Assembly (NCBI GenBank): GCA_036507075.1
Contig: DASXQR010000185.1
Coordinates: 1 to 12,049, forward strand
From: Acidobacteriota bacterium
GTDB taxonomy: Bacteria > Acidobacteriota > UBA6911 > JACQSX01
Length of the DNA: 12,049 bases
Direction: 5' to 3'
Below the pieces are notes generated by a model, which worked only from the letters and a program-made list of their open reading frames with translations, had not been told where the DNA came from and ran no database searches. A program made the position numbers and the translations under genes. Shown piece by piece: positions 1 through 12,049 of the stretch. Positions within the stretch are counted from its first letter, which is position 1. Each line of letters opens with the position of its first letter.

Positions 1-138
1 AGCCGCAGCCTCCGTTTCGGCTGGAGGATGGATCGATCGAGAGATGAATTTCAAATCGATAACAAACATTTTTGGACCGAAACTCATGTTAGTTAATAGC
101 TTAAGAGATTTTCGTAAAACCTTAACCGGACAGTAGTG
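1..138 (-). mobile_element. Probable terminal region (left end) of an insertion sequence, possibly IS4-family; transposase would lie outside the window
   Basis: The minus strand reads CACTACTGTCCGGTTAAGG from 138, which resembles IS4-family (DUF4372-type) termini as I recall them; not verified by search. It is followed by an AT-rich tract with an IHF-like box (AGTTAATAGCTTA, 91-103) and a minus-strand GGAGG (9-13) 8 nt from the window edge. No transposase or second inverted repeat is visible. Confidence 0.45.
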
Positions 139-139
139 A

Positions 140-323
140 TCCGTTGTCCGTTGTCAGTTGTCAGTTGTCAGTTGTAGTCAGTTGTCAGTTGTGGCGCTGC
201 CTTTTTGGCTCTGTAGTGAAGCATAACCACCGGAATGATGATCAGGAACTCAACCGCCAATCAGGAACAGATAACCACGGACAACTGACAACTGACCACT
301 GACAACTGACAACGGACCACGGA
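140..323. repeat. Inverted pair of heptamer tandem arrays, (TCMGTTG)7 / 83-nt spacer / (CMACKGA)7
   Basis: 140-191: TCCGTTG x2, TCAGTTG x3, TAG, TCAGTTG x2. 275-323: CCACGGA, CAACTGA x2, CCACTGA, CAACTGA, CAACGGA, CCACGGA, which are reverse-complement units. Confidence 0.95.
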
Positions 324-339
324 CAGCTTTATTTGCATT

Positions 340-1101
340 TCATTGTAACCCAATCACGGCAAACATCCTTCCAGCCAGAAGTCCGTCGCGTCGATAAGAA
401 GGAAATAAGTCTGCGCTGCATTTGGTGCAGAACGAATTGGACAGGATATGCTCCGGGCGTAATCCCAAGCTCAGAGCCTGCTCCGTGCTTGCTCGCTTCA
501 AATCAAGGCACTTTCGCTCGCTCCCCGGATGCGGGCAAAAGAATGCATGTGCCTCGGGATACTGCTGCTCAAAAGCGCTCAGGACTTCCGGCCCCACTTC
601 GTAACAGCAGTTTCCGATCCCGGGCCCAAGAGCCATCCACAAGTCTTCGGGCCGCGACCCGGAATCGATCAGTTCCCTGATGGCGGTCCCGGCAATGTTG
701 GCCAGTGTTCCGCGCCAGCCGGCATGAAGATTGCCGACAATCCTGCGTTTTGTGTCCACCAGCAGGATGGGTAAACAATCGGCCGTTTGCGTGAGCAGTA
801 ACGCGCCCGGGGCATCCCCAAGCCATCCGTCTCCCTGTTGTGGAATGGTTTTCTGCCTGCCGAACCAATGGACCTGGTTTCCATGCACCTGCCGCGTGAA
901 AACCAGCCGCTCCGGGCGCCCCAGGCAGCCAAGCAGTTGTTCCAGCCGCTCTCGTGTGTGCGGTTGATCGAGGGATCTTTGTTCCGGGGTCACGGTGAAA
1001 AGGTGAAAAACAAAAGGAAATCGTTTCAGTTCTTCAAAGAAAAGGTAACGATCGCCATGGCAGGATTCAAGACGAAGCATACCAAAGTCAAAGCGAGCCA
1101 T
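340..1101 (-). CDS. pgeF: PgeF/YfiH-family protein (peptidoglycan editing factor / purine nucleoside phosphorylase, laccase-domain)
   Basis: Family motifs QVHG, GDG, TADCLPILL, HAGWRG, GPGIGxCCYEVG, CTKC and FPSYRR-GRM. The start could be 1101 or the Met at 1080. Confidence 0.93.
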   Translation of the reverse strand: MARFDFGMLRLESCHGDRYLFFEELKRFPFVFHLFTVTPEQRSLDQPHTRERLEQLLGCLGRPERLVFTRQVHGNQVHWFGRQKTIPQQGDGWLGDAPGALLLTQTADCLPILLVDTKRRIVGNLHAGWRGTLANIAGTAIRELIDSGSRPEDLWMALGPGIGNCCYEVGPEVLSAFEQQYPEAHAFFCPHPGSERKCLDLKRASTEQALSLGLRPEHILSNSFCTKCSADLFPSYRRDGLLAGRMFAVIGLQ

Positions 1102-1102
1102 C

Positions 1103-1283
1103 CGGAATGCGGAATTCGGAATGCGGAATAAGGAGGCAACTTACTTTAGACTTTCTGTCTTGGTCGCAATTGACATTTGCAGATGTCTCCCACAAACTTC
1201 ATTCCGCATTCCGCATTCCGCATTCCGCATTCCACATTCCGCCTTCCACATTCCGCATTCCGCATTCCACATTCCGCAATCGA
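1103..1283. repeat. Inverted pair of heptamer tandem arrays, (CGGAATN)4 / 69-nt spacer / (CATTCCR)11-12
   Basis: 1103-1130: CGGAATG, CGGAATT, CGGAATG, CGGAATA. 1200-1276: eleven CATTCCG/CATTCCA/CCTTCCA units, plus a degenerate CAATCGA to 1283. Confidence 0.95.
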
Positions 1284-1304
1284 AAGCGCCTTCGCGGTGA
1301 GCTT

Positions 1305-1802
1305 TCACTCCGAGCTCAGTTTTTCCGCCGACACGGCGATGCCTTCTTCCATCTTTTTCTTCCACAATTCCAGCTTGCGGGCAAGAGGCTCATCGGATAA
1401 GGCGAGGATCTGGCAGGCCAGCACGGCTGCATTCTTCGCGCCCGCCTTTCCGATAGCCATGGCCGCAACCGGAACTCCCCCGGGCATCTGGGAAGTGGAC
1501 AAAAGGGAATCCAGGCCCGAAAGAGGCGAGCTGGCCAGCGGAACGCCGATCACCGGGCGCGTCGTCTCGGCGGCCACGACTCCCCCCAGATGCGCCGCCC
1601 CGCCGGCGCCCACGATAAAGACTTTCACCCCCTCCTTCTCCATCTGGGCGACCAGCTTTCGCGTACGAGCCGGAGAGCGATGCGCGGAGGTAACCGTGAC
1701 GTAGTAAGGGACTCCCATTTCACTCAGAAAGCGCGTGGCCTCGTTCATTACTTCGGCGTCGCTGGCGCTTCCCATGAAGATTGCCGTCTTGTACCGGCTC
1801 AT
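1305..1802 (-). CDS. purE: N5-carboxyaminoimidazole ribonucleotide mutase PurE
   Basis: Motifs MGSASD, SAHRSP, GAGGAAHL, PVIGVP, GLDSLLS-QMPGGVPVA and AKNAA; 165 aa; ATGA overlap with the purD stop. Confidence 0.97.
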   Translation of the reverse strand: MSRYKTAIFMGSASDAEVMNEATRFLSEMGVPYYVTVTSAHRSPARTRKLVAQMEKEGVKVFIVGAGGAAHLGGVVAAETTRPVIGVPLASSPLSGLDSLLSTSQMPGGVPVAAMAIGKAGAKNAAVLACQILALSDEPLARKLELWKKKMEEGIAVSAEKLSSE

Positions 1803-3076
1803 GCGGAAATCTCCAGCCCCGCCCCGATGTCGGACCGATAGCGCATGCCTTCAAACTGGATGGCGTTGACTGCTTCATAAGCGCGCAGTACGGCTTCGGG
1901 AAGAGAACCGGCTGTCGCTGAAATCATAAGAACGCGCCCTCCTGCAGTGACCACTCGCCCGTCGCGCAAGGCCGTGCCTGCATGGAAAACCTTAATATTG
2001 TCCATGTCTGAGGACATTTCAAGGCCGCTGATGATCTTCCCCGTCTGGTACTCTCCGGGGTATCCGCCTGAAGCCAGCACCACACACACGGCGCTGCGCA
2101 TACTCCATTCCAACACCTGTTCCTGCAGCGTTCGATCGGCTACCGACAGCAGCAGGTCGGCAAAATCGGATTGCAGCCGCGGCAGGATCACTTCCGTTTC
2201 CGGATCTCCCAGGCGCACATTGAACTCCAGCACCCTGGGACCTTCGTTGGTAATCATCAGCCCTGCGTACAACGCGCCCTGGAAAGGAAACCCTTCGCTC
2301 TCCATGGCGCGCAGCGTCGGTTGGATGATCTGTGACAGGATCTGCCTCTCGAGGGCCTCCTCAATCAAACCGGGGACGGAAACGGCGCCCATGCCGCCCG
2401 TGTTGGGACCGGCATCTCCGTCGTATGCCCGCTTATAGTCCTGGCTGGCGACCACGGGGGCGATGTTTCGCCCGTCGGTAAAAACCATGTAGGAGGCTTC
2501 GCGCCCGGTAACGAATTCTTCGAGCACCACGCGATCTCCGGCCGAACCGAACTGGCGCTTTTTGAAAATCGCCTCCAAAGCATCTACGGCTTCCCGCTCC
2601 GAAGCGCAAACAAACACACCCTTGCCCGCGGCCAGGCCATCAGCCTTGACCACCAGGGGGAAGCGCCACTCGCGGGCGATCTGATTTATCGCCTGGTCGT
2701 AGGATTCAACGGTGGCGTAGCGCGCCGTGGGTATTTTGTGGCGCGACATGAATTCCTTGGCGAAAACCTTGCTGCCTTCAAGACGGGCTGCGTTGCGTGA
2801 AGGTCCAACCAGCGGCAGGCTCCGTTTTTGAAATTCTTCGGAGATCCCTGCCACCAGGGGAGACTCGGGCCCCACGACCGTCAGGTCAATGGCCTGGGCC
2901 TCGGCAAAGTCGGCCAGCGACGCAAGATCATTGACCGGGATGGGAACATTTTCGAACTCTCGGGCAGTACCCGCATTTCCGGGCGCGACAAAAATCTTTG
3001 TTATCTTGGACGATTGGGAAAGTTTCCAGGCGATGGCATGTTCGCGCGCTCCGGGCCCGACTACCAGTATCTTCAT
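1799..3076 (-). CDS. purD: Phosphoribosylamine--glycine ligase PurD
   Basis: Motifs MKILVVGxGAREHA, APGNAG, VGPE, LEGSKxFAKEFM, KADGLAAGKGV, GPNTGGMGA, EFNVRLGDPE, FHAGT and GGRVL. Start reassigned to the ATG at 3076, which gives the canonical N-terminus and an ATGA overlap with the upstream stop; 425 aa. Confidence 0.97.
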   Translation of the reverse strand: MKILVVGPGAREHAIAWKLSQSSKITKIFVAPGNAGTAREFENVPIPVNDLASLADFAEAQAIDLTVVGPESPLVAGISEEFQKRSLPLVGPSRNAARLEGSKVFAKEFMSRHKIPTARYATVESYDQAINQIAREWRFPLVVKADGLAAGKGVFVCASEREAVDALEAIFKKRQFGSAGDRVVLEEFVTGREASYMVFTDGRNIAPVVASQDYKRAYDGDAGPNTGGMGAVSVPGLIEEALERQILSQIIQPTLRAMESEGFPFQGALYAGLMITNEGPRVLEFNVRLGDPETEVILPRLQSDFADLLLSVADRTLQEQVLEWSMRSAVCVVLASGGYPGEYQTGKIISGLEMSSDMDNIKVFHAGTALRDGRVVTAGGRVLMISATAGSLPEAVLRAYEAVNAIQFEGMRYRSDIGAGLEISA

Positions 3077-5169
3077 CTGGGAATTAACTCCACGCTGGTT
3101 ACGCGGTCTCCCACCTGTATCCGATCCACTGCGGAAATTCCGCCAGTGACCTGCGCGAAGACCGTATAGCCTCCGTCCAGGTGCGGCTGCGTCGAATGGC
3201 ATATGAAGTACTGGCTTCCACCGGTGTCCTTTCCCGACAGCGCCATTCCCACCGCACCGCGCTCGAAAGGCCGATCATTAATTTCGCACCGGATCGCATA
3301 GCCCGGCCCTCCGTCTGTGTCATTGCGAGGATCGCCGCCCTGGACCACAAAGTCAGGTACGACGCGCGGGAAAATCAGGTTATTGAAAACTCTCTTTTGT
3401 GCCAGCGTAATGAAGTTGTAGACAGTCAACGGGGCGTGTTCCCCCAGAAACTCGATTTTCCAGGATCCGCGATCTGTTTCAAACCGCGCCCCCGAATAGC
3501 TTTTCACAGTATTGATCGCGTTGACATAAAACTGATGATTGCGGCCGGTATTCACCAGTCCCGCCGTTTCGCCGGCGGACTGTTGAAATTTACCGGTGAG
3601 CAACTGCCGCGCTCTCAAACGCACATTTCGATCCGCATCCCGGGCGACGCTCTCCAGTCTCGGCACGGCGGCCGGCGCGCTCAGCGTCGCGAAAAAGTCG
3701 ACGGCAGCCAGACGCGCATCGGTTGTGCCTTCAGATTGAAACTGAAAATAACTCTGCAGCACTCGATCGGCGGCTTCCATCGACCAGGGCTGGACAGCGC
3801 CCGCGCGCCGGCTCAATTCCGCCAGCGCCTGTATGGCATGAGCGCGCAGTATGGGATCGGGATCGGCGAGATAGCGCCAAAAAGCTTCAGGTGCGACCGG
3901 TTTGCCTGTCTGGATGATGGCATCCAGACACCAGGGAAGAAGAAGTTTTCGACCTGCCGGCAACTGGCTGTCGAGAGAAACGAGCTTCTCGAGCGCAGCC
4001 TGCGAACCGTTTTCACCCAGAGCCAGGATCTTGGAGCGCTGCAACCAGAATGGATCCGAACTGATATCGACTTCGGCCGGAAAAGTTTCGTCTCCTTTAC
4101 GCGCTTTCGCCAGAGCCAGAACGGCTGCGGCTGAAGCCGGACGGCGCTGTTTGGCGAATTGCGCCACCACGTTCCAGCGCGGCGCGGCGCCGATGGAGCC
4201 CAAAGACTCGATCGCCGCGATCACCAGGTGCTCGTCTTCACCGCCTGTCACGGAGACGTATTTCTCAAGCAACGCTACCAGCCGCTCGCCGGCTGCCGGA
4301 CTCTTTGTGAGTCCCAGCCCGCGTGCCGCCTCGATGCGGACGGATAAATTGGAATCTTTTAACAGATCTGAAAGCCGTGAAACCACCTTCTCTCCAGCCA
4401 GGCCGCACGCTCGAGCGGCATGCGCCCGCACCTGGGCGGTCCTGTCATCCAGTAAAGAAACGATCTGCTCGGCTGCGGGAGCATCGCGCAGGCGATAAAT
4501 CGCGTTGGCCAGTTGCCAGCGCACTTCGGCAGAGGCGTGAGACTTCAGGAACAGGGCGCGGGAAAGAGCCGGCGTCGCCCCCAGCCGCGCCAAAGCCATC
4601 AGCGCGCGGGTGACAAACTCGACATTCTGAACATTGCTCTGAATTGCGGCCACGACGCTGTCGGCCATGTCTTTCTGGCCGCTTTTGCCGATGGCTTCCA
4701 CGGCACGAGTCCGAACCAGCGGATCCGAATCGCCCAATGCCGACAGCAGCGTAGAAATCCAATCCGCTCGAAGATCGAATCCTTCGTGCTGGCGGTTGGA
4801 AGTGTCCACAATTTCGCCGGCGGCGAAAAGAGCACGCGCTCGCACCAGCGGATTCAAGTCGACCAACCGCTCAAAGAGCCAGGGCAGCGCGCGTGGGTCT
4901 CCGATTCTGCCGAGCGCCAGCAGCGCCCGCATTTTGAATGCCGTATCCTTGGATCTGGTAAGGTCGAAAAGAAAATTGTCAGATCCGATCCAGCGGGAAT
5001 CTTCGCGCTGCAGGATGCGGGCAAAGGTGTCAACGGGACTGGGCTTGATCGCAACGGTGCGCGCTGCGCGGGTGTGGCGCCGAACCACACGTTTTCGTTT
5101 CTTCGCTTCGGCCGGCACTGCGGCGAGCAGGAACAGGATCAGGAAAATAGAGACGAACCTGCTTCTCAT
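3073..5169 (-). CDS. Exported HEAT-repeat protein with C-terminal cyclophilin-type peptidyl-prolyl isomerase domain
   Basis: From the Met at 5169 there is a signal-peptide-like MRSRFVSIFLILFLLAAVPAEA, then multiple HEAT-like units (e.g. LGDSDPLVRTRAVEAIG, LLKDSNLSVRIEAARGLG). The C-terminus has cyclophilin motifs APLTVYNF, RVVPDFVVQGGDP, GAVGMA-GKDTGGSQYFI and HLDGGYTVFAQV; 698 aa. Confidence 0.9.
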   Translation of the reverse strand: MRSRFVSIFLILFLLAAVPAEAKKRKRVVRRHTRAARTVAIKPSPVDTFARILQREDSRWIGSDNFLFDLTRSKDTAFKMRALLALGRIGDPRALPWLFERLVDLNPLVRARALFAAGEIVDTSNRQHEGFDLRADWISTLLSALGDSDPLVRTRAVEAIGKSGQKDMADSVVAAIQSNVQNVEFVTRALMALARLGATPALSRALFLKSHASAEVRWQLANAIYRLRDAPAAEQIVSLLDDRTAQVRAHAARACGLAGEKVVSRLSDLLKDSNLSVRIEAARGLGLTKSPAAGERLVALLEKYVSVTGGEDEHLVIAAIESLGSIGAAPRWNVVAQFAKQRRPASAAAVLALAKARKGDETFPAEVDISSDPFWLQRSKILALGENGSQAALEKLVSLDSQLPAGRKLLLPWCLDAIIQTGKPVAPEAFWRYLADPDPILRAHAIQALAELSRRAGAVQPWSMEAADRVLQSYFQFQSEGTTDARLAAVDFFATLSAPAAVPRLESVARDADRNVRLRARQLLTGKFQQSAGETAGLVNTGRNHQFYVNAINTVKSYSGARFETDRGSWKIEFLGEHAPLTVYNFITLAQKRVFNNLIFPRVVPDFVVQGGDPRNDTDGGPGYAIRCEINDRPFERGAVGMALSGKDTGGSQYFICHSTQPHLDGGYTVFAQVTGGISAVDRIQVGDRVTSVELIPR

Positions 5170-5180
5170 TGAAGGGAAGG

Positions 5181-5189
5181 AGTGTAGCA
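5181..5189 (-). promoter_or_regulatory. Putative extended -10 (TGcTACACT) for the HEAT/PPIase-purD-purE cluster
   Basis: The minus strand reads TGCTACACT-ccttcccttca-ATG(5169); there is no SD in the 11 intervening nt. Confidence 0.5.
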
Positions 5190-5223
5190 GATTTCGAAGG
5201 GCGAAGGTTGGTGCAAAGGCTGG

Positions 5224-5275
5224 CTTGGTGCCTTGGTGGTTCAAGGTTTTTTGACCACCAAGGCACCAAGACACC
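5224..5275. repeat. Inverted repeat built of 8-mer units (CTTGGTGC / RCACCAAG)
   Basis: CTTGGTGCCTTGGTGGT (5224-5240) is the exact reverse complement of ACCACCAAGGCACCAAG (5254-5270). A partial further unit, ACACC, follows. Confidence 0.9.
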
Positions 5276-5296
5276 ATATGCCGCTATCGCAGGCGC

Positions 5297-5302
5297 TATA
5301 AT
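5297..5302 (+). promoter_or_regulatory. Consensus -10 box for the radical SAM gene (probably leaderless transcript)
   Basis: TATAAT-caaaga-ATG(5309); no SD. Confidence 0.65.
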
Positions 5303-5308
5303 CAAAGA

Positions 5309-6385
5309 ATGGCCACGCAGATGAAATCGGCTTCTCCCGCACTGGCCGAAGTAATCGACCACATGGTGGTAGAAGGTGCGCCGGAGCTCTACCAGAAAAA
5401 AGAAGAGCAGAAGGTTCGCTGCTACGCCTGCGGCCATCGATGCCTGATCTTTGACGGCCAGCGCGGCGTGTGCAAAGTCCGTTACAACCGCGGCGGCCAA
5501 CTGTACGTGCCGCACGGGTATGTTGGCGCTTTGCAGTGCGATCCGATCGAGAAAAAACCGTTTTTTCACGTGCGCCCCGGGTCCGACATTCTCACATTCG
5601 GGATGCTCGGCTGCGATTATCACTGCGCCTATTGCCAGAACTGGGTTACTTCGCAGAGCCTGCGGGATTCCACGGCCGGAGTCGAGCCGATGCCCGTCAG
5701 CGCCGAACAACTGGTCGACATGGCCCAGCGCCGCGGATCGCGGATGCTCGCCAGCTCTTACAACGAGCCGCTGATAACTTCAGAGTGGGCTGTGGAGGTT
5801 TTCGATGCGGCGCGAAGACGGGGATTGCTGACCGGATACATCTCAAACGGAAACGGCACCCCGGAAGTCCTCAACTACCTGAGGCCGCATATCGATTTTT
5901 ACAAAGTGGATTTGAAGTCCATGTCCGACGCCAACTACCGGCGTCTCGGCGGGAAGCTGGAAACCGTGCTGGACACCATCGGCAGGCTGCATGCGCTGGG
6001 CCTGTGGGTTGAAATTGTCACCCTATTGATTCCAGGCTTTAACGACTCGGAAAGCGAATTGCAGTCAGCGGCGAAATTTCTCGCCGGGGTCTCAAACGCC
6101 ATCCCCTGGCATGTGACTGCTTTCCACAAAGATTACAAAATGACTGATCCCGACAATACCACGCCGGCCGCCCTGAAGCGCGCCGCCCAAATCGGACGGG
6201 ACCAGGGGCTGCAGTTTGTTTATGCCGGAAATCTTCCAGGGCGTGTGGGGGATCTGGAACACACCTATTGCCCGGCTTGCAGTGAGTTGCTGGTGGAGCG
6301 CTTCGGCTTTCAAGTGCTCAAATACCGGATCAAGGATGGTGGTTGTCCGAAATGCGGCACCAAGATTCCGGGGATTTGGAATTAG
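5309..6385 (+). CDS. amrS: AmmeMemoRadiSam-system radical SAM enzyme (PFL-activase-like)
   Basis: N-terminal CYACGHRC...GVCKVR, DPIEKKPFFH, radical SAM motif CDYHCAYCQNW, SYNEP, VDLK, PWHVTAFH, YAGN, and C-terminal CPAC...CPKCG. Confidence 0.9.
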   Translation: MATQMKSASPALAEVIDHMVVEGAPELYQKKEEQKVRCYACGHRCLIFDGQRGVCKVRYNRGGQLYVPHGYVGALQCDPIEKKPFFHVRPGSDILTFGMLGCDYHCAYCQNWVTSQSLRDSTAGVEPMPVSAEQLVDMAQRRGSRMLASSYNEPLITSEWAVEVFDAARRRGLLTGYISNGNGTPEVLNYLRPHIDFYKVDLKSMSDANYRRLGGKLETVLDTIGRLHALGLWVEIVTLLIPGFNDSESELQSAAKFLAGVSNAIPWHVTAFHKDYKMTDPDNTTPAALKRAAQIGRDQGLQFVYAGNLPGRVGDLEHTYCPACSELLVERFGFQVLKYRIKDGGCPKCGTKIPGIWN

Positions 6386-6386
6386 G

Positions 6387-6555
6387 CATTCAGTCATTCA
6401 GTCAATCAGTCATTCAGTCAATCAGTCAATCAGTCATTCAGTCCTTCAGTCCATCAGTCCATCAGTCCATCAGGCAATCAGGTTATTGTCAGTTATACGA
6501 CTGAGAAACTGAGAAACTGAGAGACTGAGAGACTGAGAGACTGAGACACCGAAAT
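6387..6555. repeat. Inverted pair of octamer tandem arrays, (CMWTCAGK)12 / 17 nt / (ACTGAGAN)6-7
   Basis: 6387-6482: twelve units CATTCAGT/CAATCAGT/CCTTCAGT/CCATCAGT/CCATCAGG/CAATCAGG. 6500-6547: ACTGAGAA x2, ACTGAGAG x3, ACTGAGAC, then a degenerate ACCGAAAT. The element fills the gap between two convergent stop codons. Confidence 0.95.
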
Positions 6556-6559
6556 CAAG

Positions 6560-7942
6560 TTATTCCCCTGTACCGGTTACATTGGCGCGGCTGAACAGCT
6601 TCTGCAGCTCTTCTTCGCCTAGAATTCCGCGCTCGCGGACCACATCAATGATGGAGCGACTTTCACGCAAAGCCTGCTTTACGACTTCCGCGGCTGCGTT
6701 GTAGCCGATCACCGGATTGAGCACGGTTGCCAGCGAAGGACTGGTCTCATAATACCGCCGACAGCGCTCGACATTAGGCCGGATCCCGTCAATGCATCTC
6801 TCTGCAAAAACCGGCAGATAGTTGGCCAGCACTTCCATCGACTGCAGCAGGCTGTAAATCATCACCGGCATCATCACGTTCAACTCAAGCTGGCCGGCCT
6901 GCGAGGCCAGCGCAATCACGGTTTCGCTGCCGATGACGTAAAAGGCAATCATGTTCAGGCATTCGGCCATCACCGGATTGACCTTTCCCGGCATTATTGA
7001 CGAGCCGGGTTGAACCGCGGGCAACACAATTTCATCCAGACCGGTCAGCGGCCCCGATGCCAGCAGCCGAATGTCGTTAGCGATGCGCGTTAATTCCAGC
7101 GCCAGCAGTTTCAGCGAGGAAGCCATGGCCGCGATTGCAAGCCTGCTCTGCATTCCTTCCCGCATGTCGGGCGTGGGTTTTAACGGAAAGCCGCTGTAGC
7201 TTGACAGATACTGCATGGCCCGTTGCCTGTATCCGGGGACGGCGTTCAAGCCGGTGCCCACCGCCGTTCCTCCGAGAGGCAGTTCCAGCAACTCTGCGGC
7301 AGCCGCCTTGAGAAACTTTGCGGAACGCTCCAGCGCGCCGGCGTAAGCCGTGAATTCCTGCCCCAGTGTTACCGGGACGGCGTCCTGCAGATGGGTGCGT
7401 CCCGATTTGATTACTTCCGCGAACTCTTCTCCCTTTCGCCGCAGCGAAGAGATCAGCCGCTCGAGCGCACTCTGCGCGCGCCGGTGAAGGAGCAGCGCGG
7501 AAAGATGCATGGCCGTGGGAAACGTGTCATTGGTGCTCTGCGCCATGTTTACGTGATCGTTCGGGTGCAGGGAGGCGTAGTCGCCCCGCTTCTTGCCCAT
7601 CAGCTCGAGCGCGCGGTTTGCGACTACTTCGTTCACGTTCATGTTGAAGGAAGTTCCTGCGCCGGCCTGGAACACGTCGACGACGAACTGATCCTGCAGC
7701 GCGCCGCCGAGGATCTCGTCGCAGGCCCGCAGAATGGCCGAGGCGCGTGCCGCATCGAGAAGCCCCAGGTCACGGTTCGCCTCAGCGGCGGCCCGTTTGA
7801 TCCATACATAGCTGCGAATGAAGGCGGGGTGTTCCCTGATTCCGGATACGGGGAAATTCTCCAGAGCCCGGGCCGTCTGAATTCCGTAATAAGCCGTATC
7901 GGGGATTTCCTTTTCGCCCAGAGAGTCCTTTTCGGTTCTCAT
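6560..7942 (-). CDS. aspA: Aspartate ammonia-lyase (fumarase/aspartase superfamily)
   Basis: Signature GSSIMPGKVNP, plus MRTEKDSLG, YYGIQTARALENFP, QAGAGTSFNMN, QSTND, GRTHLQDAVP and GQLELNVM. GAGTS and QDAVP favour AspA over FumC (GSGTQ/DATP). ATG at 7942 preferred to TTG at 7948. Confidence 0.82.
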   Translation of the reverse strand: MRTEKDSLGEKEIPDTAYYGIQTARALENFPVSGIREHPAFIRSYVWIKRAAAEANRDLGLLDAARASAILRACDEILGGALQDQFVVDVFQAGAGTSFNMNVNEVVANRALELMGKKRGDYASLHPNDHVNMAQSTNDTFPTAMHLSALLLHRRAQSALERLISSLRRKGEEFAEVIKSGRTHLQDAVPVTLGQEFTAYAGALERSAKFLKAAAAELLELPLGGTAVGTGLNAVPGYRQRAMQYLSSYSGFPLKPTPDMREGMQSRLAIAAMASSLKLLALELTRIANDIRLLASGPLTGLDEIVLPAVQPGSSIMPGKVNPVMAECLNMIAFYVIGSETVIALASQAGQLELNVMMPVMIYSLLQSMEVLANYLPVFAERCIDGIRPNVERCRRYYETSPSLATVLNPVIGYNAAAEVVKQALRESRSIIDVVRERGILGEEELQKLFSRANVTGTGE

Positions 7943-8010
7943 AGTCAAAAATGGGGCAAGTTGGCAACTTCTTGTTTTTTAGACAAGATTTCAGAAGACA
8001 AGAATCCGAT

Positions 8011-8212
8011 CACGTCAACGTCGACGTTTTTCGTCTACGTCCACGTGCACGTACGGCCACGTCAATGTCCACGAGGCCCGTCCAAATGCTGCTTGACAGA
8101 CTTAGAGCTTAATCATACTTAACCGGCCAAGAGTCAGGCTTGCGATTTTTTTTTGTGAGCGTCGACGTGGCCGTTGACATCTATCATTGACGTGCACGTG
8201 CACGTGGCCGTT
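8011..8212. repeat. Degenerate hexamer arrays (NACGTS) in inverted arrangement around a ~82-nt AT-richer spacer
   Basis: 8011-8075: CACGTC AACGTC GACGTT ... TACGTC CACGTG CACGTA ... CACGTC. 8158-8212: GACGTG GCCGTT ... GACGTG CACGTG CACGTG GCCGTT. Exact 11-bp inverted pairs are 8053-8063/8164-8174 and 8042-8052/8190-8200. Confidence 0.85.
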
Positions 8213-8260
8213 CTCGGCTTTTCTTTTGTTGCGGCCTACGGGTTGTGCCTAACCCAATTA

Positions 8261-8266
8261 TATAAT
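8261..8266 (+). promoter_or_regulatory. Consensus -10 box for the Cys-rich hypothetical gene (probably leaderless transcript)
   Basis: TATAAT-cgcggtc-GTG(8274); no SD. Confidence 0.6.
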
Positions 8267-8273
8267 CGCGGTC

Positions 8274-8882
8274 GTGCGTTGTCTGATATGCGATCAGAGA
8301 AAGGGAAAGCGGTTCTGCCCCGCCAAGGGCGGATATATCTGCGCGCAATGCTGCGGGGAAAAACGGGTGGTGGAGATCGACTGCCCTTCCAATTGCATTT
8401 ACCTGGCGGAAGGCCGTCGCTACCAGAATGATCTGATCTACTCGCGCATGTTTCGCGACTGGGACGAGTTTCGCAGGCAGGAGCTGGTGCGCCTGGCAGG
8501 CCAATTTGAAGATCTCTTCCAGGTAATCGAAGGATACGTGCTGCAGAACAGACGCGTCATCGGAAAGGATGAGAACCTGCTGGCAGCACTGGACCTGATC
8601 GAGAAGAGCCTGGAGACCGAGGCCAAAGGAATTCTTTATCGGCCGGCTGCCTCCAACCTGATGATTGAAACTGTGGCGCGCGAGCTGGAGAAGATCCTGG
8701 AGCAGCGCCGAAATCTATCCGATTTTCAGCATGCGCGGCTCAACAGTTCCGATGCTGCTTCGATCATCCGCATCTTAAAAGAAGAGGTTTCATTTCATGT
8801 GCGCTCCGGTTCCAGCTACCTGGAATTTCTGGCTCGCTCGCGCCCCGCCGACAAGGAGCCGTCACGGCTTATTGTGCCGTGA
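8274..8882 (+). CDS. Hypothetical protein with N-terminal 8-Cys putative zinc-binding domain
   Basis: 202-aa ORF filling the gap between two repeat elements. Cys at residues 3, 6, 15, 23, 26, 27, 37 and 41; helical-looking remainder; TATAAT immediately upstream. Confidence 0.8.
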   Translation: MRCLICDQRKGKRFCPAKGGYICAQCCGEKRVVEIDCPSNCIYLAEGRRYQNDLIYSRMFRDWDEFRRQELVRLAGQFEDLFQVIEGYVLQNRRVIGKDENLLAALDLIEKSLETEAKGILYRPAASNLMIETVARELEKILEQRRNLSDFQHARLNSSDAASIIRILKEEVSFHVRSGSSYLEFLARSRPADKEPSRLIVP

Positions 8883-8895
8883 TCTTAAGTCGAAC

Positions 8896-9087
8896 GTCCC
8901 CTTCAGTACCGCGATCCGTCAGGGCGCGGCGCGCCAGACTTGCGGGCCTGGAGGTGGCATCTGAGGAAGCCTGGGTGGTGATTCGACATGCTGGCGCGCC
9001 GCGACCTTACGGATCGCGGTACTGAAGGCGCGTGTGAGCGACGATCTGGCCTGCCGCGACCTTACGGATCGCGCTACTGAAGGGGAC
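8896..9087. repeat. REP/BIME-like element: three copies of a 38-nt imperfect palindrome (one forward, two reverse)
   Basis: 8900-8937 matches the reverse complement of 8991-9028 at 36/38. 9046-9083 matches 8991-9028 at 35/38. The outer ends GTCCCCTTCAGTA / TACTGAAGGGGAC are a perfect 13-bp inverted repeat. There is an internal stem CCGCGA...TCGCGG. Confidence 0.9.
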
Positions 9088-9100
9088 CTTGGCCCTTCGA

Positions 9101-10261
9101 CTAGCGGTTGCCTTCGATAGTTTCAGTCGTAATCGCCGACATGCCTTGGTTAACCAGTGCTTCTTCGTCGAGGTCCTGTCCGGCGCGGGCCATGAAATCG
9201 GGAGTTGCCCGGGTTTCCGGATGCTTCGGCACGAATAATGAACAGCAGTCCTGGTCGGGTAAGATCGAAATCGGGTAAGTTCCGATCTGCTGCGCCAATT
9301 CCACGATTTCCTCCTTGTCGTTGCCGATCAGCGGGCGCAGCACCGGAATCTGTATTCCCTGGCTGATGATTCGGATATTCTCCAGCGTCTGCGACGCCAC
9401 CTGCCCGATGCTGTCGCCCGTGACAATGGCATGCGCCCGTTCCCGGCGCGCGATTCTTTCGGCGATTGCCATCATGATGCGCCGATAAAACAATACCCGC
9501 GCTCCCGGCGGCGCGAACGCCATGATTTTCTTTTGTACTTCGGCAAAGGCGACCCAGTAAACGCGCGACCTCTGCTGATACCGGTTCAGCACCCGGACAA
9601 TCTCCCTCACTTTTTCCTGGGACTGCAGCGTAGTGAAGGGAAAGCTGTGAAAATGCACAAAGCTGAGACGGCAGCCTCTCTTCAGCACGCGGTAGGAAGC
9701 CACCGGGGAATCAATTCCGCCCGAAATCAGGGCCACCGCTTTTCCGCCCGTGGCTGTGGGCATCCCGTGCGGGCCCTCAATGCGGTCCGTATAGACGTAG
9801 GCATGACCCTGAACCATCTCGATGTAAAAGGTGAGGTCCGGATGCGTGAGATCTACTTTCTTGCCGGTTCGCTGCACCACATAGGCGCCCAGCTCCCGGT
9901 TCACCTCGGGTGAGGTAACAGGAATGTTCTTTTCCGATCTGCGTGTGTGAACACGGAACGAAGAGAATTCGCGATCGAAGGATTTTTCCAGCAGCCCGCG
10001 AATTTCATTGAGATCCTGCGACGTTTCCCTGGCATCGGCAAAATAAACTACTCCAAAAACCGTTCTCAGCCGGCGCGCGACCTCTTCAAAGGGGATCTCT
10101 TCTGGGACAGGCACAATCAGACGTCCGGAGAGTCGCTCGCATCGCAGATCAAATTGTGAGAGCGCCCGCTCGACGTTCTCTTTCAACCGCACTTCAAAAA
10201 AGCCGCGGTTTTTCCGCTTCAAGCCGATCTCGTGGTAATGAAGAACAATGACGCGGCGCAT
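9101..10261 (-). CDS. thiI: tRNA 4-thiouridine(8) synthase ThiI (short form, no rhodanese domain)
   Basis: N-terminal HYHEIGLKRKNRxxFE, THUMP region (SFRVHTRR...NRELGA...VDLTHPD), PP-loop LISGGIDSPVA, TGDSIGQVASQTLEN, RPLIGxDKEEI and DCC. Start reassigned to the ATG at 10261, 1 nt after the upstream stop; 386 aa. Confidence 0.95.
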   Translation of the reverse strand: MRRVIVLHYHEIGLKRKNRGFFEVRLKENVERALSQFDLRCERLSGRLIVPVPEEIPFEEVARRLRTVFGVVYFADARETSQDLNEIRGLLEKSFDREFSSFRVHTRRSEKNIPVTSPEVNRELGAYVVQRTGKKVDLTHPDLTFYIEMVQGHAYVYTDRIEGPHGMPTATGGKAVALISGGIDSPVASYRVLKRGCRLSFVHFHSFPFTTLQSQEKVREIVRVLNRYQQRSRVYWVAFAEVQKKIMAFAPPGARVLFYRRIMMAIAERIARRERAHAIVTGDSIGQVASQTLENIRIISQGIQIPVLRPLIGNDKEEIVELAQQIGTYPISILPDQDCCSLFVPKHPETRATPDFMARAGQDLDEEALVNQGMSAITTETIEGNR

Positions 10262-10262
10262 C

Positions 10263-11897
10263 TCAGACCTTCGACCGTCGCAGCACCTGTCCCGATTTTT
10301 GCGGATTGATTTCCCCCTTGCGAAGCGCGCAGATGCCATTTACGAAGACATAGTCGATTCCGGCGGCATAGCGATGGGGGTTTTCGAAAGTGGCGACGTC
10401 GGCGATTTTTTCCGGATCAAAGACAACCAGGTCCGCGATGTAACCGGTTTGGATTCTCCCGCGCGCTTTCAGGCCGATTTTTTCGGCGGGCAGCGAGGTC
10501 ATTTTTTTTATTGCATCTTCCAGTTTGAGCGCCTTTCTTTCTCGAACATACAGTCCAAGCACTCGCGGGAAAGTTCCGTAGGATCGCGGGTGTGGCCGGC
10601 CCTTTGCCAGCGGCCCGTCGGCAGCCAGGGCGTTGCCGTCGGATCCGACCATCGAAAGCGGGTGTTTCAGGAAGCGGATCAGATTCTCTTCGTTCATCGC
10701 GAATGCGACGATTGAAACTCGGTCGTCTTCTTCGATGATCAGGTGTCGGGCCGCCTCGAAGGGTGCAATCTTCAGGGTATCGCCCACCTCCTGCAAAGAT
10801 TTTCCTTCGGTCCACTTGTTTTTCTGGGTCGAAACAGCCGCCACAATGTAGGCATTCCAGGAGTTGACCGATCGAATCTTCGATTCCACATCGGGCCGGG
10901 CACGCTCGGCGGCGGTATCGTCCTTGAGACGCGAGACAAAAGCATCATCCCCCCCTTCACGGATCCAGAGAGGGAAGATTGTTTCAAGGCCGGTGGAAAA
11001 TGCGATGTAAGGATAACGGTCGAAGTGAACATCAACCTTGTGGCGCCGCGCCGACTCGATCAGTTGCAGAGCGCTTTCAATCTTTGACCAGTTGTCTTTC
11101 CCTTCCGTCTTCAGATGCGAAATCTGCAGCCGCGCTCCGGAGCGATGGCTGACTTCGAGCGCCTCTTTGATTGCTTCCAGCAAAGCGTCCCCCTCGTTTC
11201 GCATGTGAGTAGCGTAAAGGGCGCCGTGCCGGGCCGTCACTCCGTTGAGCGCTGCCAGCTCTCTGAGAGTGGCAAAACTGCCGGGGGTGTATTCCAGCCC
11301 GCTGGAAAGCCCGAATGCCCCCTCTCTTAGAAAACTGTCCAGCCACTGCTTCATTTCAGAGAGCTCCCGGGCCGTCGGAGCACGGTTTTCCTCGCCCATT
11401 ACGAAGGCTCTCAGCGAGCCGTGGCCGACCAGGCTGGCGTAGTTGATTGACAGGGGCAGCGCTTCAAGTTCCGCAAAATAAGACTGGAAAGTGCGCGCGT
11501 TGCGCAGGCGTGAAGGGACGGCGCTCGAACCGCAATTGCCGCTCAGCTCGGTGGTCACCCCCTGGCGGAGTTTGCTCTCCGCGTGAGGATTGATGGGCAG
11601 TTGGGAATCGGTGTGGGTGTGTATGTCGATGAATCCGGGAGCCAGGCAGCGGCCTTCAAGATCAATAACTTCGACGCCAGGGGCACTGCCTATCTTTCCT
11701 ATCTTCTGAACCCGGTCCTGTTCGATCAGGACATCGGCCTGGTAGCGCGCCTGTCCCGAGCCGTCAATGACGCACGCGTTTGTGAGCAGGCAGCCTGCTT
11801 TCTCCCGAACCTGCAGCCAGGAACCCGCCGCGGGAGCCACCAGGAGGGCTTGCCCCAGAAAGACGCGGCGAGTGACTGGTTTTCCGACGATTTGCAT
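10263..11897 (-). CDS. N-acyl-D-amino-acid deacylase (D-aminoacylase) family amidohydrolase with putative Tat signal
   Basis: Motifs VIDGSG, APGFIDIHTHTD, QGVTTELSGNCG, GLSSGLEYTPG, HMRNEG, SHLK, GSDG, PHPRSYGTFPRVLG, ADLVVFDP and GIDYVFVNG. N-terminus TRRVFLGQALLVAPAAG. Confidence 0.9.
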   Translation of the reverse strand: MQIVGKPVTRRVFLGQALLVAPAAGSWLQVREKAGCLLTNACVIDGSGQARYQADVLIEQDRVQKIGKIGSAPGVEVIDLEGRCLAPGFIDIHTHTDSQLPINPHAESKLRQGVTTELSGNCGSSAVPSRLRNARTFQSYFAELEALPLSINYASLVGHGSLRAFVMGEENRAPTARELSEMKQWLDSFLREGAFGLSSGLEYTPGSFATLRELAALNGVTARHGALYATHMRNEGDALLEAIKEALEVSHRSGARLQISHLKTEGKDNWSKIESALQLIESARRHKVDVHFDRYPYIAFSTGLETIFPLWIREGGDDAFVSRLKDDTAAERARPDVESKIRSVNSWNAYIVAAVSTQKNKWTEGKSLQEVGDTLKIAPFEAARHLIIEEDDRVSIVAFAMNEENLIRFLKHPLSMVGSDGNALAADGPLAKGRPHPRSYGTFPRVLGLYVRERKALKLEDAIKKMTSLPAEKIGLKARGRIQTGYIADLVVFDPEKIADVATFENPHRYAAGIDYVFVNGICALRKGEINPQKSGQVLRRSKV

Positions 11898-11973
11898 ACC
11901 GTTATATCAGCCTCGGATTATTCAAAAACTTCACCGCAAAGAACACTAGGAGCGCGAAGTTAGCGTGAGTTGA

Positions 11974-12049
11974 CGGCCGGGAGCTTAAAGCATGAGGGCA
12001 TTGCATGTCGCTTTTTGCGCTGGCCCTTCATGCTTTAAGCTCCTGGCCG
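11974..12049. repeat. Long inverted repeat (26/27-nt arms, 23-nt loop), reaching the window edge
   Basis: CGGCCGGGAGCTTAAAGCATGAGGGC (11974-11999) vs GCCCTTCATGCTTTAAGCTCCTGGCCG (12023-12049): one mismatch and one bulge. Confidence 0.9.

Follow-up and report, generated by a model that had tools for sequence, protein, structure and literature searches.

The intervening sequences of 23S rRNA carry the IVP/S23 protein (PF05635), and the late competence regulon, a gene set that includes comEA, comEC, comF, comM, dprA, ssb, recA, radC and a pilin gene, stands under alternative sigma factors such as ComX and SigH. Among repeat families, REPINs, doublets built from repetitive extragenic palindromic (REP) elements, are thought to move via REP-associated tyrosine transposases (RAYTs), according to PMC3116915; Y1 proteins process single-stranded DNA at secondary structures (PMC6006769), and ISPpu9 is an insertion sequence (IS) that targets REP sequences (PMC8450116). 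Here we compare these systems with the intergenic fold-back elements of a 12,049-nucleotide (nt) stretch of an Acidobacteriota genome, the window, which is the whole contig C185 (DASXQR010000185.1) of a 6.1-Mb genome in 233 contigs (G000, assembly GCA_036507075.1). The original prediction had placed seven such elements in this stretch, numbered E1 to E7 in what follows, and all seven proved real, with arrays and inverted arms where it had seen them. Our preferred reading, which we hold with a little better than even confidence, is that they belong to families coming and going between related genomes, that E5 is a gutted cassette of a four-helix-bundle (4HB) gene, and that the set is likely the non-autonomous residue of hairpin-bounded cassettes, which are predicted to be competence-switched and would then travel as single-stranded DNA hairpins. 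What is new is that one promoter-like motif is common to 4HB, GxxExxY and Y1 cassettes and to competence genes.

Gene cassettes and the deletion derivative E5

In relatives, a full cassette consists of a left arm, a promoter motif, a ribosome site, one small gene and an inverted right arm; the gene encodes a 4HB (23S_rRNA_IVP) protein, a GxxExxY nuclease or a Y1 HUH transposase. The window genome itself has eight TIGR02436 matches at seven loci (4HB) and six TIGR04256 matches (GxxExxY), flanked by the same kinds of arms, and the relatives of its cassette genes are titled Acidobacteriota. In an automatic test, 34 of 56 4HB genes had inverted arrays on both sides. All 15 with hexamer arms fall into one clade of a tree with 56 rows, across Acidobacteriota, Thermodesulfobacteriota and Myxococcota; 13 of the rows came from a query with that clade itself. 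The cassettes lie in either orientation to their neighbour genes, as expected if they have promoters of their own. At three loci (L071, L076, L266) a whole right-arm/left-arm hairpin stands on both sides of the cassette; if the middle were lost, a single hairpin of the E3 or E4 kind would remain.

E5 (about 7957..8240, minus strand, its extent taken from flanks common to other copies; arrays at 8012-8073 and 8165-8210) is the hexamer-arm element of the window. Its layout is left arm, promoter motif, last 4HB codons and right arm, with the promoter joined to the last four codons and stop of the 4HB gene (M-I-K-L-stop, 8102..8116, minus strand), and it can be aligned with the cassette at L072 at both ends, 5' and 3'. 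The 37 matches to its left arm in the genome form a deletion series of arm, promoter, ribosome site, at most 14 last 4HB codons and right arm; 13 of them keep a promoter scoring at least 14, about 13 (counted by eye) keep last 4HB codons, and in the longer members about 14 codons remain, in agreement with the C-terminal end of the proteins on C37 and at L072. The alignment thus shows E5, as far as its letters go, to be a gutted 4HB cassette.

The prediction that the window elements are cargo-less versions of 4HB and GxxExxY cassettes therefore holds at the DNA level for E5. It gains support for E1 and E3 and for E7's outer arms, whose arm types occur elsewhere with cargo, and finds no parent for E2, E4 or E6. 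The E1 arm type surrounds 4HB genes at L087 and L090; E3-type arms stand beside GxxExxY genes at C37:29182, with a related 9-mer form on both sides at L266; and cargo-bearing examples of the E7 outer-arm type are C83:12888 and L269. Convincing half-promoter remnants were absent from E1 to E4, E6 and E7.

The predicted competence-type promoter motif

The motif ahead of cargo genes is made up of an A/T tract, TCGCA, 18 nt and GTTnnGT. A matrix seeded on 10 cargo loci matched 80 sites in the genome, against one in a reversed-genome control, and stood ahead of 42 of the 4435 called genes. One of the 80 matches lies in E5 (8107..8156, minus strand, 34.0 bits) and faces a gene of the aspartate ammonia-lyase/fumarase family (aspA-like; 6560..7942, minus strand, NF008909). 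Pfam, on 38 of the 66 downstream frames, gave SSB, RecA, a ComEA-type helix-hairpin-helix domain, ComM, a GspH-type pilin, a ComF-type protein, RadC, ComEC, DprA, RecQ, UvrD, RecG, an ERCC4 nuclease and nine Y1_Tnp; 13 of the scanned frames behind the motif had no Pfam family. Ten of the 12 Y1_Tnp matches of the genome carry the motif, and the remaining two are fragments; this count, like those from relatives that follow, is not circular.

In three relatives of the same family but of other genera (G001-G003), the motif was found at 16 of 20 4HB loci; for Y1 loci the count was 21 of 26, and for GxxExxY loci 7 of 9. The 4HB check covered 26 of 30 loci, six of them from G005 and G007. The other two GxxExxY genes lie directly behind dprA (L274 and L275, in G001 and G003). 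The dprA motif of the three relatives scores 24.9, 12.3 and 40.9. In G005 and G007 the cassette motif is shifted and, judged by eye, agrees with the motif that the respective genome has at comM.

By its shape and position we consider the motif a predicted promoter, and the set of genes behind it probably outlines the competence regulon of an uncultured Acidobacteriota family. A DNA-damage regulon would not be expected to have comEA, comEC, comM and a pilin gene as members. The competence link is well supported within this one family; beyond it, the evidence is thin.

The motif also heads several unannotated frames (on C28, C48, C87, C97 and C57) and a gene with an ERCC4 domain. Two Y1 HUH proteins of about 410 residues, with a large unannotated N-terminal part, stand under it as well (C225:22043-23278 and C201:1071-2282; L054, L058). 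The genome has 44 sigma-factor matches. At one extracytoplasmic-function (ECF) sigma gene, on C17 (L069:4860-6094), the last codons spell the motif before an anti-sigma-like tetratricopeptide-repeat gene; this candidate regulator is not conserved, the C17 motif being weak in G001 and absent in G002 and G007.

Array families and the other elements of the window

A scan for tandem arrays with periods of 5 to 11 found 1451 in the genome, with periods of nearly always 7, 8 or 9. Inverted pairing and intergenic enrichment, both anticipated from the window, extend genome-wide: 560 arrays are in inverted pairs within 1 kb (null with shuffled motif labels: mean 73, maximum 100), and 1351 of 1446 (93%) are intergenic by our own gene calls, which make 19% of the DNA intergenic. 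These calls, which also underlie the gap counts, come from a simple in-house model. Families with at least four pairs each keep to one arm order, as seen in 216 of 217 pairs, 51 of 101 copies of the E2 (CGGAATG) family have a polar spacer of 40-48 nt, and E1-type units are nested within E2-type units at at least four loci. The shared polar spacers, the fixed arm order, the nesting and the pairing above the null show that the array elements are replicating units and not products of local slippage. This agrees with the suggested existence of several families of short non-autonomous elements; the expected two peaks of spacer length did not appear, since 277 of 334 inverted pairs have gaps below 300 nt and only 8 have gaps of 300-800 nt.

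The density of elements in the window is typical of the genome: of its 3183 gaps that measure 40-1500 nt, 1373 contain an inverted repeat with a score of at least 16, compared with 1 of 3183 after shuffling. The genes of the window are pgeF (340..1101, minus strand, TIGR00726 above cut-off), purE and purD (1305..3076, minus strand, TIGR01162 and TIGR00877), genes for a HEAT/cyclophilin protein and an AmmeMemoRadiSam radical SAM enzyme, the aspA-like gene, a hypothetical gene, thiI and an amidohydrolase gene; two ATGA overlaps and a 1-nt gap, as first described, are their only junctions outside the element-bearing gaps. The hypothetical gene (8274-8882) encodes a 202-residue protein with an N-terminal Cys-rich, zinc-ribbon-like stretch, conserved beside thiI in three relatives and matching no Pfam or NCBIfam family. 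In G001-G003 thiI directly follows this gene; in the window it is inverted (9101-10261), with E6 at one breakpoint.

Gene order of the region is otherwise kept in G001-G003, and the predicted presence/absence differences are found there, although insertion ends cannot be read exactly from these relatives. E1 (139..330; here and for the remaining elements except the outer arm of E7, no strand is assigned) lies between pgeF and acpS. Its heptamer arrays (GTTGTCA/TGACAAC, 143-192 and 274-325) have terminal inverted ends AAAGCTGTCCGT / ACGGACAGCTTT. In all three relatives, pgeF and acpS join in an ATGA overlap without E1. The purE-pgeF junction, which holds E2 in the window, is nearly closed in G001 and G002, and G003 holds a different element there. 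G003 also has array elements at the PPI-purD and purD-purE junctions, which overlap in the window.

E1 ends at 330 in the window; the remainder of the arm continues on contig C152, followed by acpS. The contig break is caused by an IS4-family element inserted in the E1 arm, whose end, with the terminal repeat CACTACTGTCCGGTTAA, occupies 1..138 (minus strand) and is identical in C183, C80, C205 and C49. A full copy on C80 (L212) encodes a 389-residue IS4 transposase (NF033592, E 1.6e-78), and a 9-bp target-site duplication (139..147, plus strand) has its partner on C152 (L292), so that the DDE transposase, terminal inverted repeats and target duplication of an IS4 are all present. Among the 12 IS4 ends listed, 11 adjoin clear heptamer arrays (GTCCGTT, GTCAGTT or GGTCATT type), and the array beside the remaining end, on C97, is degenerate. 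A second IS4 of the genome, 68% identical, likewise lies within a heptamer array and has a 9-bp duplication, while 20 related copies examined in other genomes had no arrays in their flanks. Among the assembled contigs of four DNA runs, X2 also carries the IS4 junction; no empty allele was found in them, and joints that would mark excision or insertion intermediates are swamped there by other copies.

E2 (1103..1283; heptamers CGGAATG/CATTCCG, arrays at 1103-1129 and 1200-1278) is a divergent member of the largest family, which has 297 arrays and one arm order in 103 of 103 pairs; its spacer matches the family profile with E 0.085 only. The spacer consensus of the family resembles a ribosome site and 4HB start, with 9 of 64 spacers reaching at least 9 bits, compared with 1.6% of shuffles, among copies that are not independent. 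E3 (5213..5281; arms at 5213-5240 and 5254-5281) is an octamer hairpin with a T-rich loop, of the type flanking GxxExxY cassettes, with 189 copies by a loose pattern. E4 (6387..6546; octamers CAWTCAGT / ACTGAGAG, arrays at 6387-6482 and 6499-6546) has its arms in the opposite order to those of the main octamer family, and its type has one further clear pair in the genome (C152:37344). E6 (8893..9090) is one doublet plus a third arm of a REP-like sequence of 34-38 nt (8900-8937, 8991-9028 and 9045-9090), with about 12 doublets in the genome (23 strand-rows). E7 (11974..12049; core arms at 11974-11998 and 12025-12049) is a 25-bp inverted core with 11 complete copies in the genome, whose arms are 0.96 alike within a copy and 0.864 between copies. 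It is the core of a larger 9-mer-array element, with a degenerate outer left arm (AAGAACGCC-type, 11915..11973, plus strand) of the type found around GxxExxY genes, and an outer right arm at the start of C200. The array-spacer-inverted-array form attributed to five elements hence extends to E7 with its outer arms, while the arms of E4 are only partly complementary, its gap scoring 0 with an ungapped inverted-repeat detector, and those of E3 have about 2.5 units each. Folding of E2, E3, E4, E6 and E7 gave z-scores of -5.8 to -9.7, with none of 200 shuffles equally good.

Proposed mobility and relation to known systems

In the cassette-residue reading, internal deletions would remove the gene and leave arm-spacer-arm units. 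E5 is such a case; the common arms suggest the same for E1, E3 and E7, the spacer hints at it for E2, and for E4 and E6 it could only be conjectured. The units themselves multiply, as their shared polar spacers and fixed arm order show, and they nest; their two arms stay matched, as seen in E7, perhaps by in-copy repair or by selection for pairing. Since the left arm contains the promoter, RNA reading through from host genes would include both arms and fold into one long stem; a transcript started at competence would lack the left arm and so be translatable. Cassettes may be induced at competence and move as folded single-stranded DNA. As catalysts, the co-regulated Y1 HUH enzymes seem the most likely candidates; they would work in trans on single-stranded DNA in its folded form, and RecA/DprA recombination would take filled alleles from cell to cell, a step to which we give somewhat under even chances.

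Several observations weigh against this reading. Among the seven elements E5 alone keeps the motif, whose putative promoter role we read from its form and position. At the pairing threshold used, 891 of the 1451 arrays have no partner. Outside the family, the promoter link consists of comM variants recognized by eye in five genomes; the upstream regions of 19 comEC, radC and dprA genes from five more distant genomes gave one clear and one doubtful match, and the Desulfobacterales and Bacteroidota cassettes examined had no such motif. Three pattern scans found no gene-bearing E2 parent (0 metagenome matches, 20 chance matches, 0 of 401 genomes), nor was a gene-bearing parent found for E4 or E6. 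At the pgeF-acpS junction the ATGA of the overlap occurs at either end of E1, which fits a duplication, and Y1 transposition is not known to make one. Selection for two intact genes would, however, also force ATGA on both sides; the same is seen at the purD-purE element of G003, and the relatives are too distant to fix the ends. Further, each cargo class has its own arms, and the grouping of the hexamer-armed 4HB genes comes from a tree that includes the 13 rows from the hexamer-clade query and in which kin share labels. Finally, no Y1 gene is flanked by any arm type of the window (13 loci of the genome, 30 of relatives); on C85, a Y1 cassette has arrays of the CGGAATG type beyond the arms of its own. 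For the mobilization of each family in trans, as originally proposed, no enzyme was found that goes with one of the seven types of arm.

This absence makes cargo-specific action a serious rival, if in our estimate still an unlikely one. Each cargo protein would serve its own arms: the GxxExxY protein, a PD-(D/E)XK nuclease (PDDEXK_3), would cut empty sites for homing-like repair from incoming DNA, the 4HB protein would bind folded arms and recruit a host or retroelement enzyme, and gene-less copies would be moved by the protein of their own family rather than by Y1. Arm type indeed follows protein class and 4HB clade, and the 4HB protein matches PDB 2gsc, a five-chain entry (the E5-parent protein matches PF05635 only); it presumably also resembles Avd of diversity-generating retroelements. 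Yet it has no known catalytic motif, the target gene junctions have no evident common sequence, and E5 retains its left arm and promoter, both of which would be missing from an RNA copy begun at the internal promoter. Less probable again is a history with no dedicated enzyme, in which cassettes decay, arrays slip, template switching matches the arms, and spread occurs only by transformation and recombination between arrays. The differing unit numbers of the two arms, the in-copy arm matching in E7, the lack of an enzyme linked to array arms and the cassettes that lie between direct repeats of a whole hairpin (L071, L076), resolvable by recombination, would fit it, but not the hundreds of copies with shared polar spacers at unrelated junctions (51 of 101 for the E2 family), nor the defined ends and the insertion into overlaps without prior homology.

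We give least weight, as a quite improbable explanation, to host-kept RNA structure modules (RNase III sites, stabilizers or terminators) that tune operon expression. Strong predicted stems, an RNase III gene (rnc) in the genome and the intergenic location of the arrays are what such modules would show, but the elements are not conserved at orthologous junctions and Rfam has no family for them at gathering score; its matches, all of them miRNA hairpin models from plants and animals, score far lower. That termination alone is insufficient, as had been argued, is confirmed by the gap classes (gaps with inverted repeats: co-directional 831 of 1960, divergent 235 of 649, convergent 307 of 574) and by orientation: E3 copies lie 61 with and 54 against transcription, and E5 copies 2 with and 7 against, which is not significant. 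These counts are usable for E3 and E5 only, as the looser E2, E6 and E7 patterns matched genes. With terminator and sigma-70 scans at chance level as well, a terminator role is rejected; a role as RNA structure may be a side effect that makes the elements tolerated.

More broadly, the cassette-residue reading points to a class of competence-coupled mobile cassettes, which we propose only tentatively and regard as rather doubtful at present: three orphan gene families unrelated to one another, 4HB/23S IVP, GxxExxY and Y1 HUH, would have a common build, would each have taken the host competence promoter, act on folded single-stranded DNA in transformation and seed array hairpins by the hundreds in such genomes, including heptamers like the short tandemly repeated repetitive (STRR) sequences of cyanobacteria, while an IS4 lineage parasitizes the arms. 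The 4HB (23S rRNA IVP) and GxxExxY families are very common and without function. The motif, carried by 10 of 12 Y1 matches and by most 4HB and GxxExxY genes of four genomes, suggests when they and RAYT-like enzymes act (at competence) and on what substrate (folded single-stranded DNA whose arms differ by family), and it allows a direct assay. A competence link would explain the origin of abundant intergenic 6-9-mer arrays, and remnants that keep the promoter, such as E5, could place host genes under competence control. The literature searched, with few subscription papers and no supplementary regulon tables among it, contained no description of array-armed 4HB or GxxExxY cassettes or of their competence link, and the passages of PMC3686654, PMC10910872 and PMC5524665 covered by it have nothing on such a system.

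Among known systems, the late competence regulons of ComX and SigH are matched in that one motif stands before comEA, comEC, comF, dprA, ssb, recA, radC and a pilin gene; here the motif is another one, and many of its sites are on mobile cassettes. The 23S rRNA intervening sequences hold the same protein family within a long stem, whereas the present cassettes lie between protein genes in either orientation, with a promoter motif of their own, and not in an rRNA gene. Cyanobacterial STRR heptamers are also intergenic arrays, and the TTGGTCA and CCCCAAT units of the genome match what we take to be STRR2 and STRR1, but the arrays here form pairs of fixed order and are linked with gene cassettes. 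Like ISPpu9 (PMC8450116), an IS lands in a host repeat family; here, however, it is an IS4 (DUF4372-DDE) that enters heptamer arrays with a 9-bp duplication and whose relatives elsewhere have no array preference. Miniature inverted-repeat transposable elements (MITEs) derive from IS elements by internal deletion. E5 alone shares this origin, as it arose in that way from a parent that bears a gene and has the ends seen in E5, while its parent gene is not a known transposase and no target duplication is clear. The likeness to REPINs and RAYTs (PMC3116915, PMC6006769) is broader: over-represented extragenic inverted doublets fold into hairpins and form replicating units that cluster and nest, and the genome has Y1 HUH genes flanked by inverted arms, several of which match by eye the subclass 1.2 signature Y---Q--HH. 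They differ in that the arms are tandem arrays of 6-9-mers, the parents bear a 4HB or GxxExxY gene, none of the Y1 genes has cognate window arms, and a competence-type promoter is shared, with no match in PMC6006769 for either 'competence' or 'promoter'. In behaviour the elements are REPIN- and MITE-like, yet by the tests run they are members of neither group.

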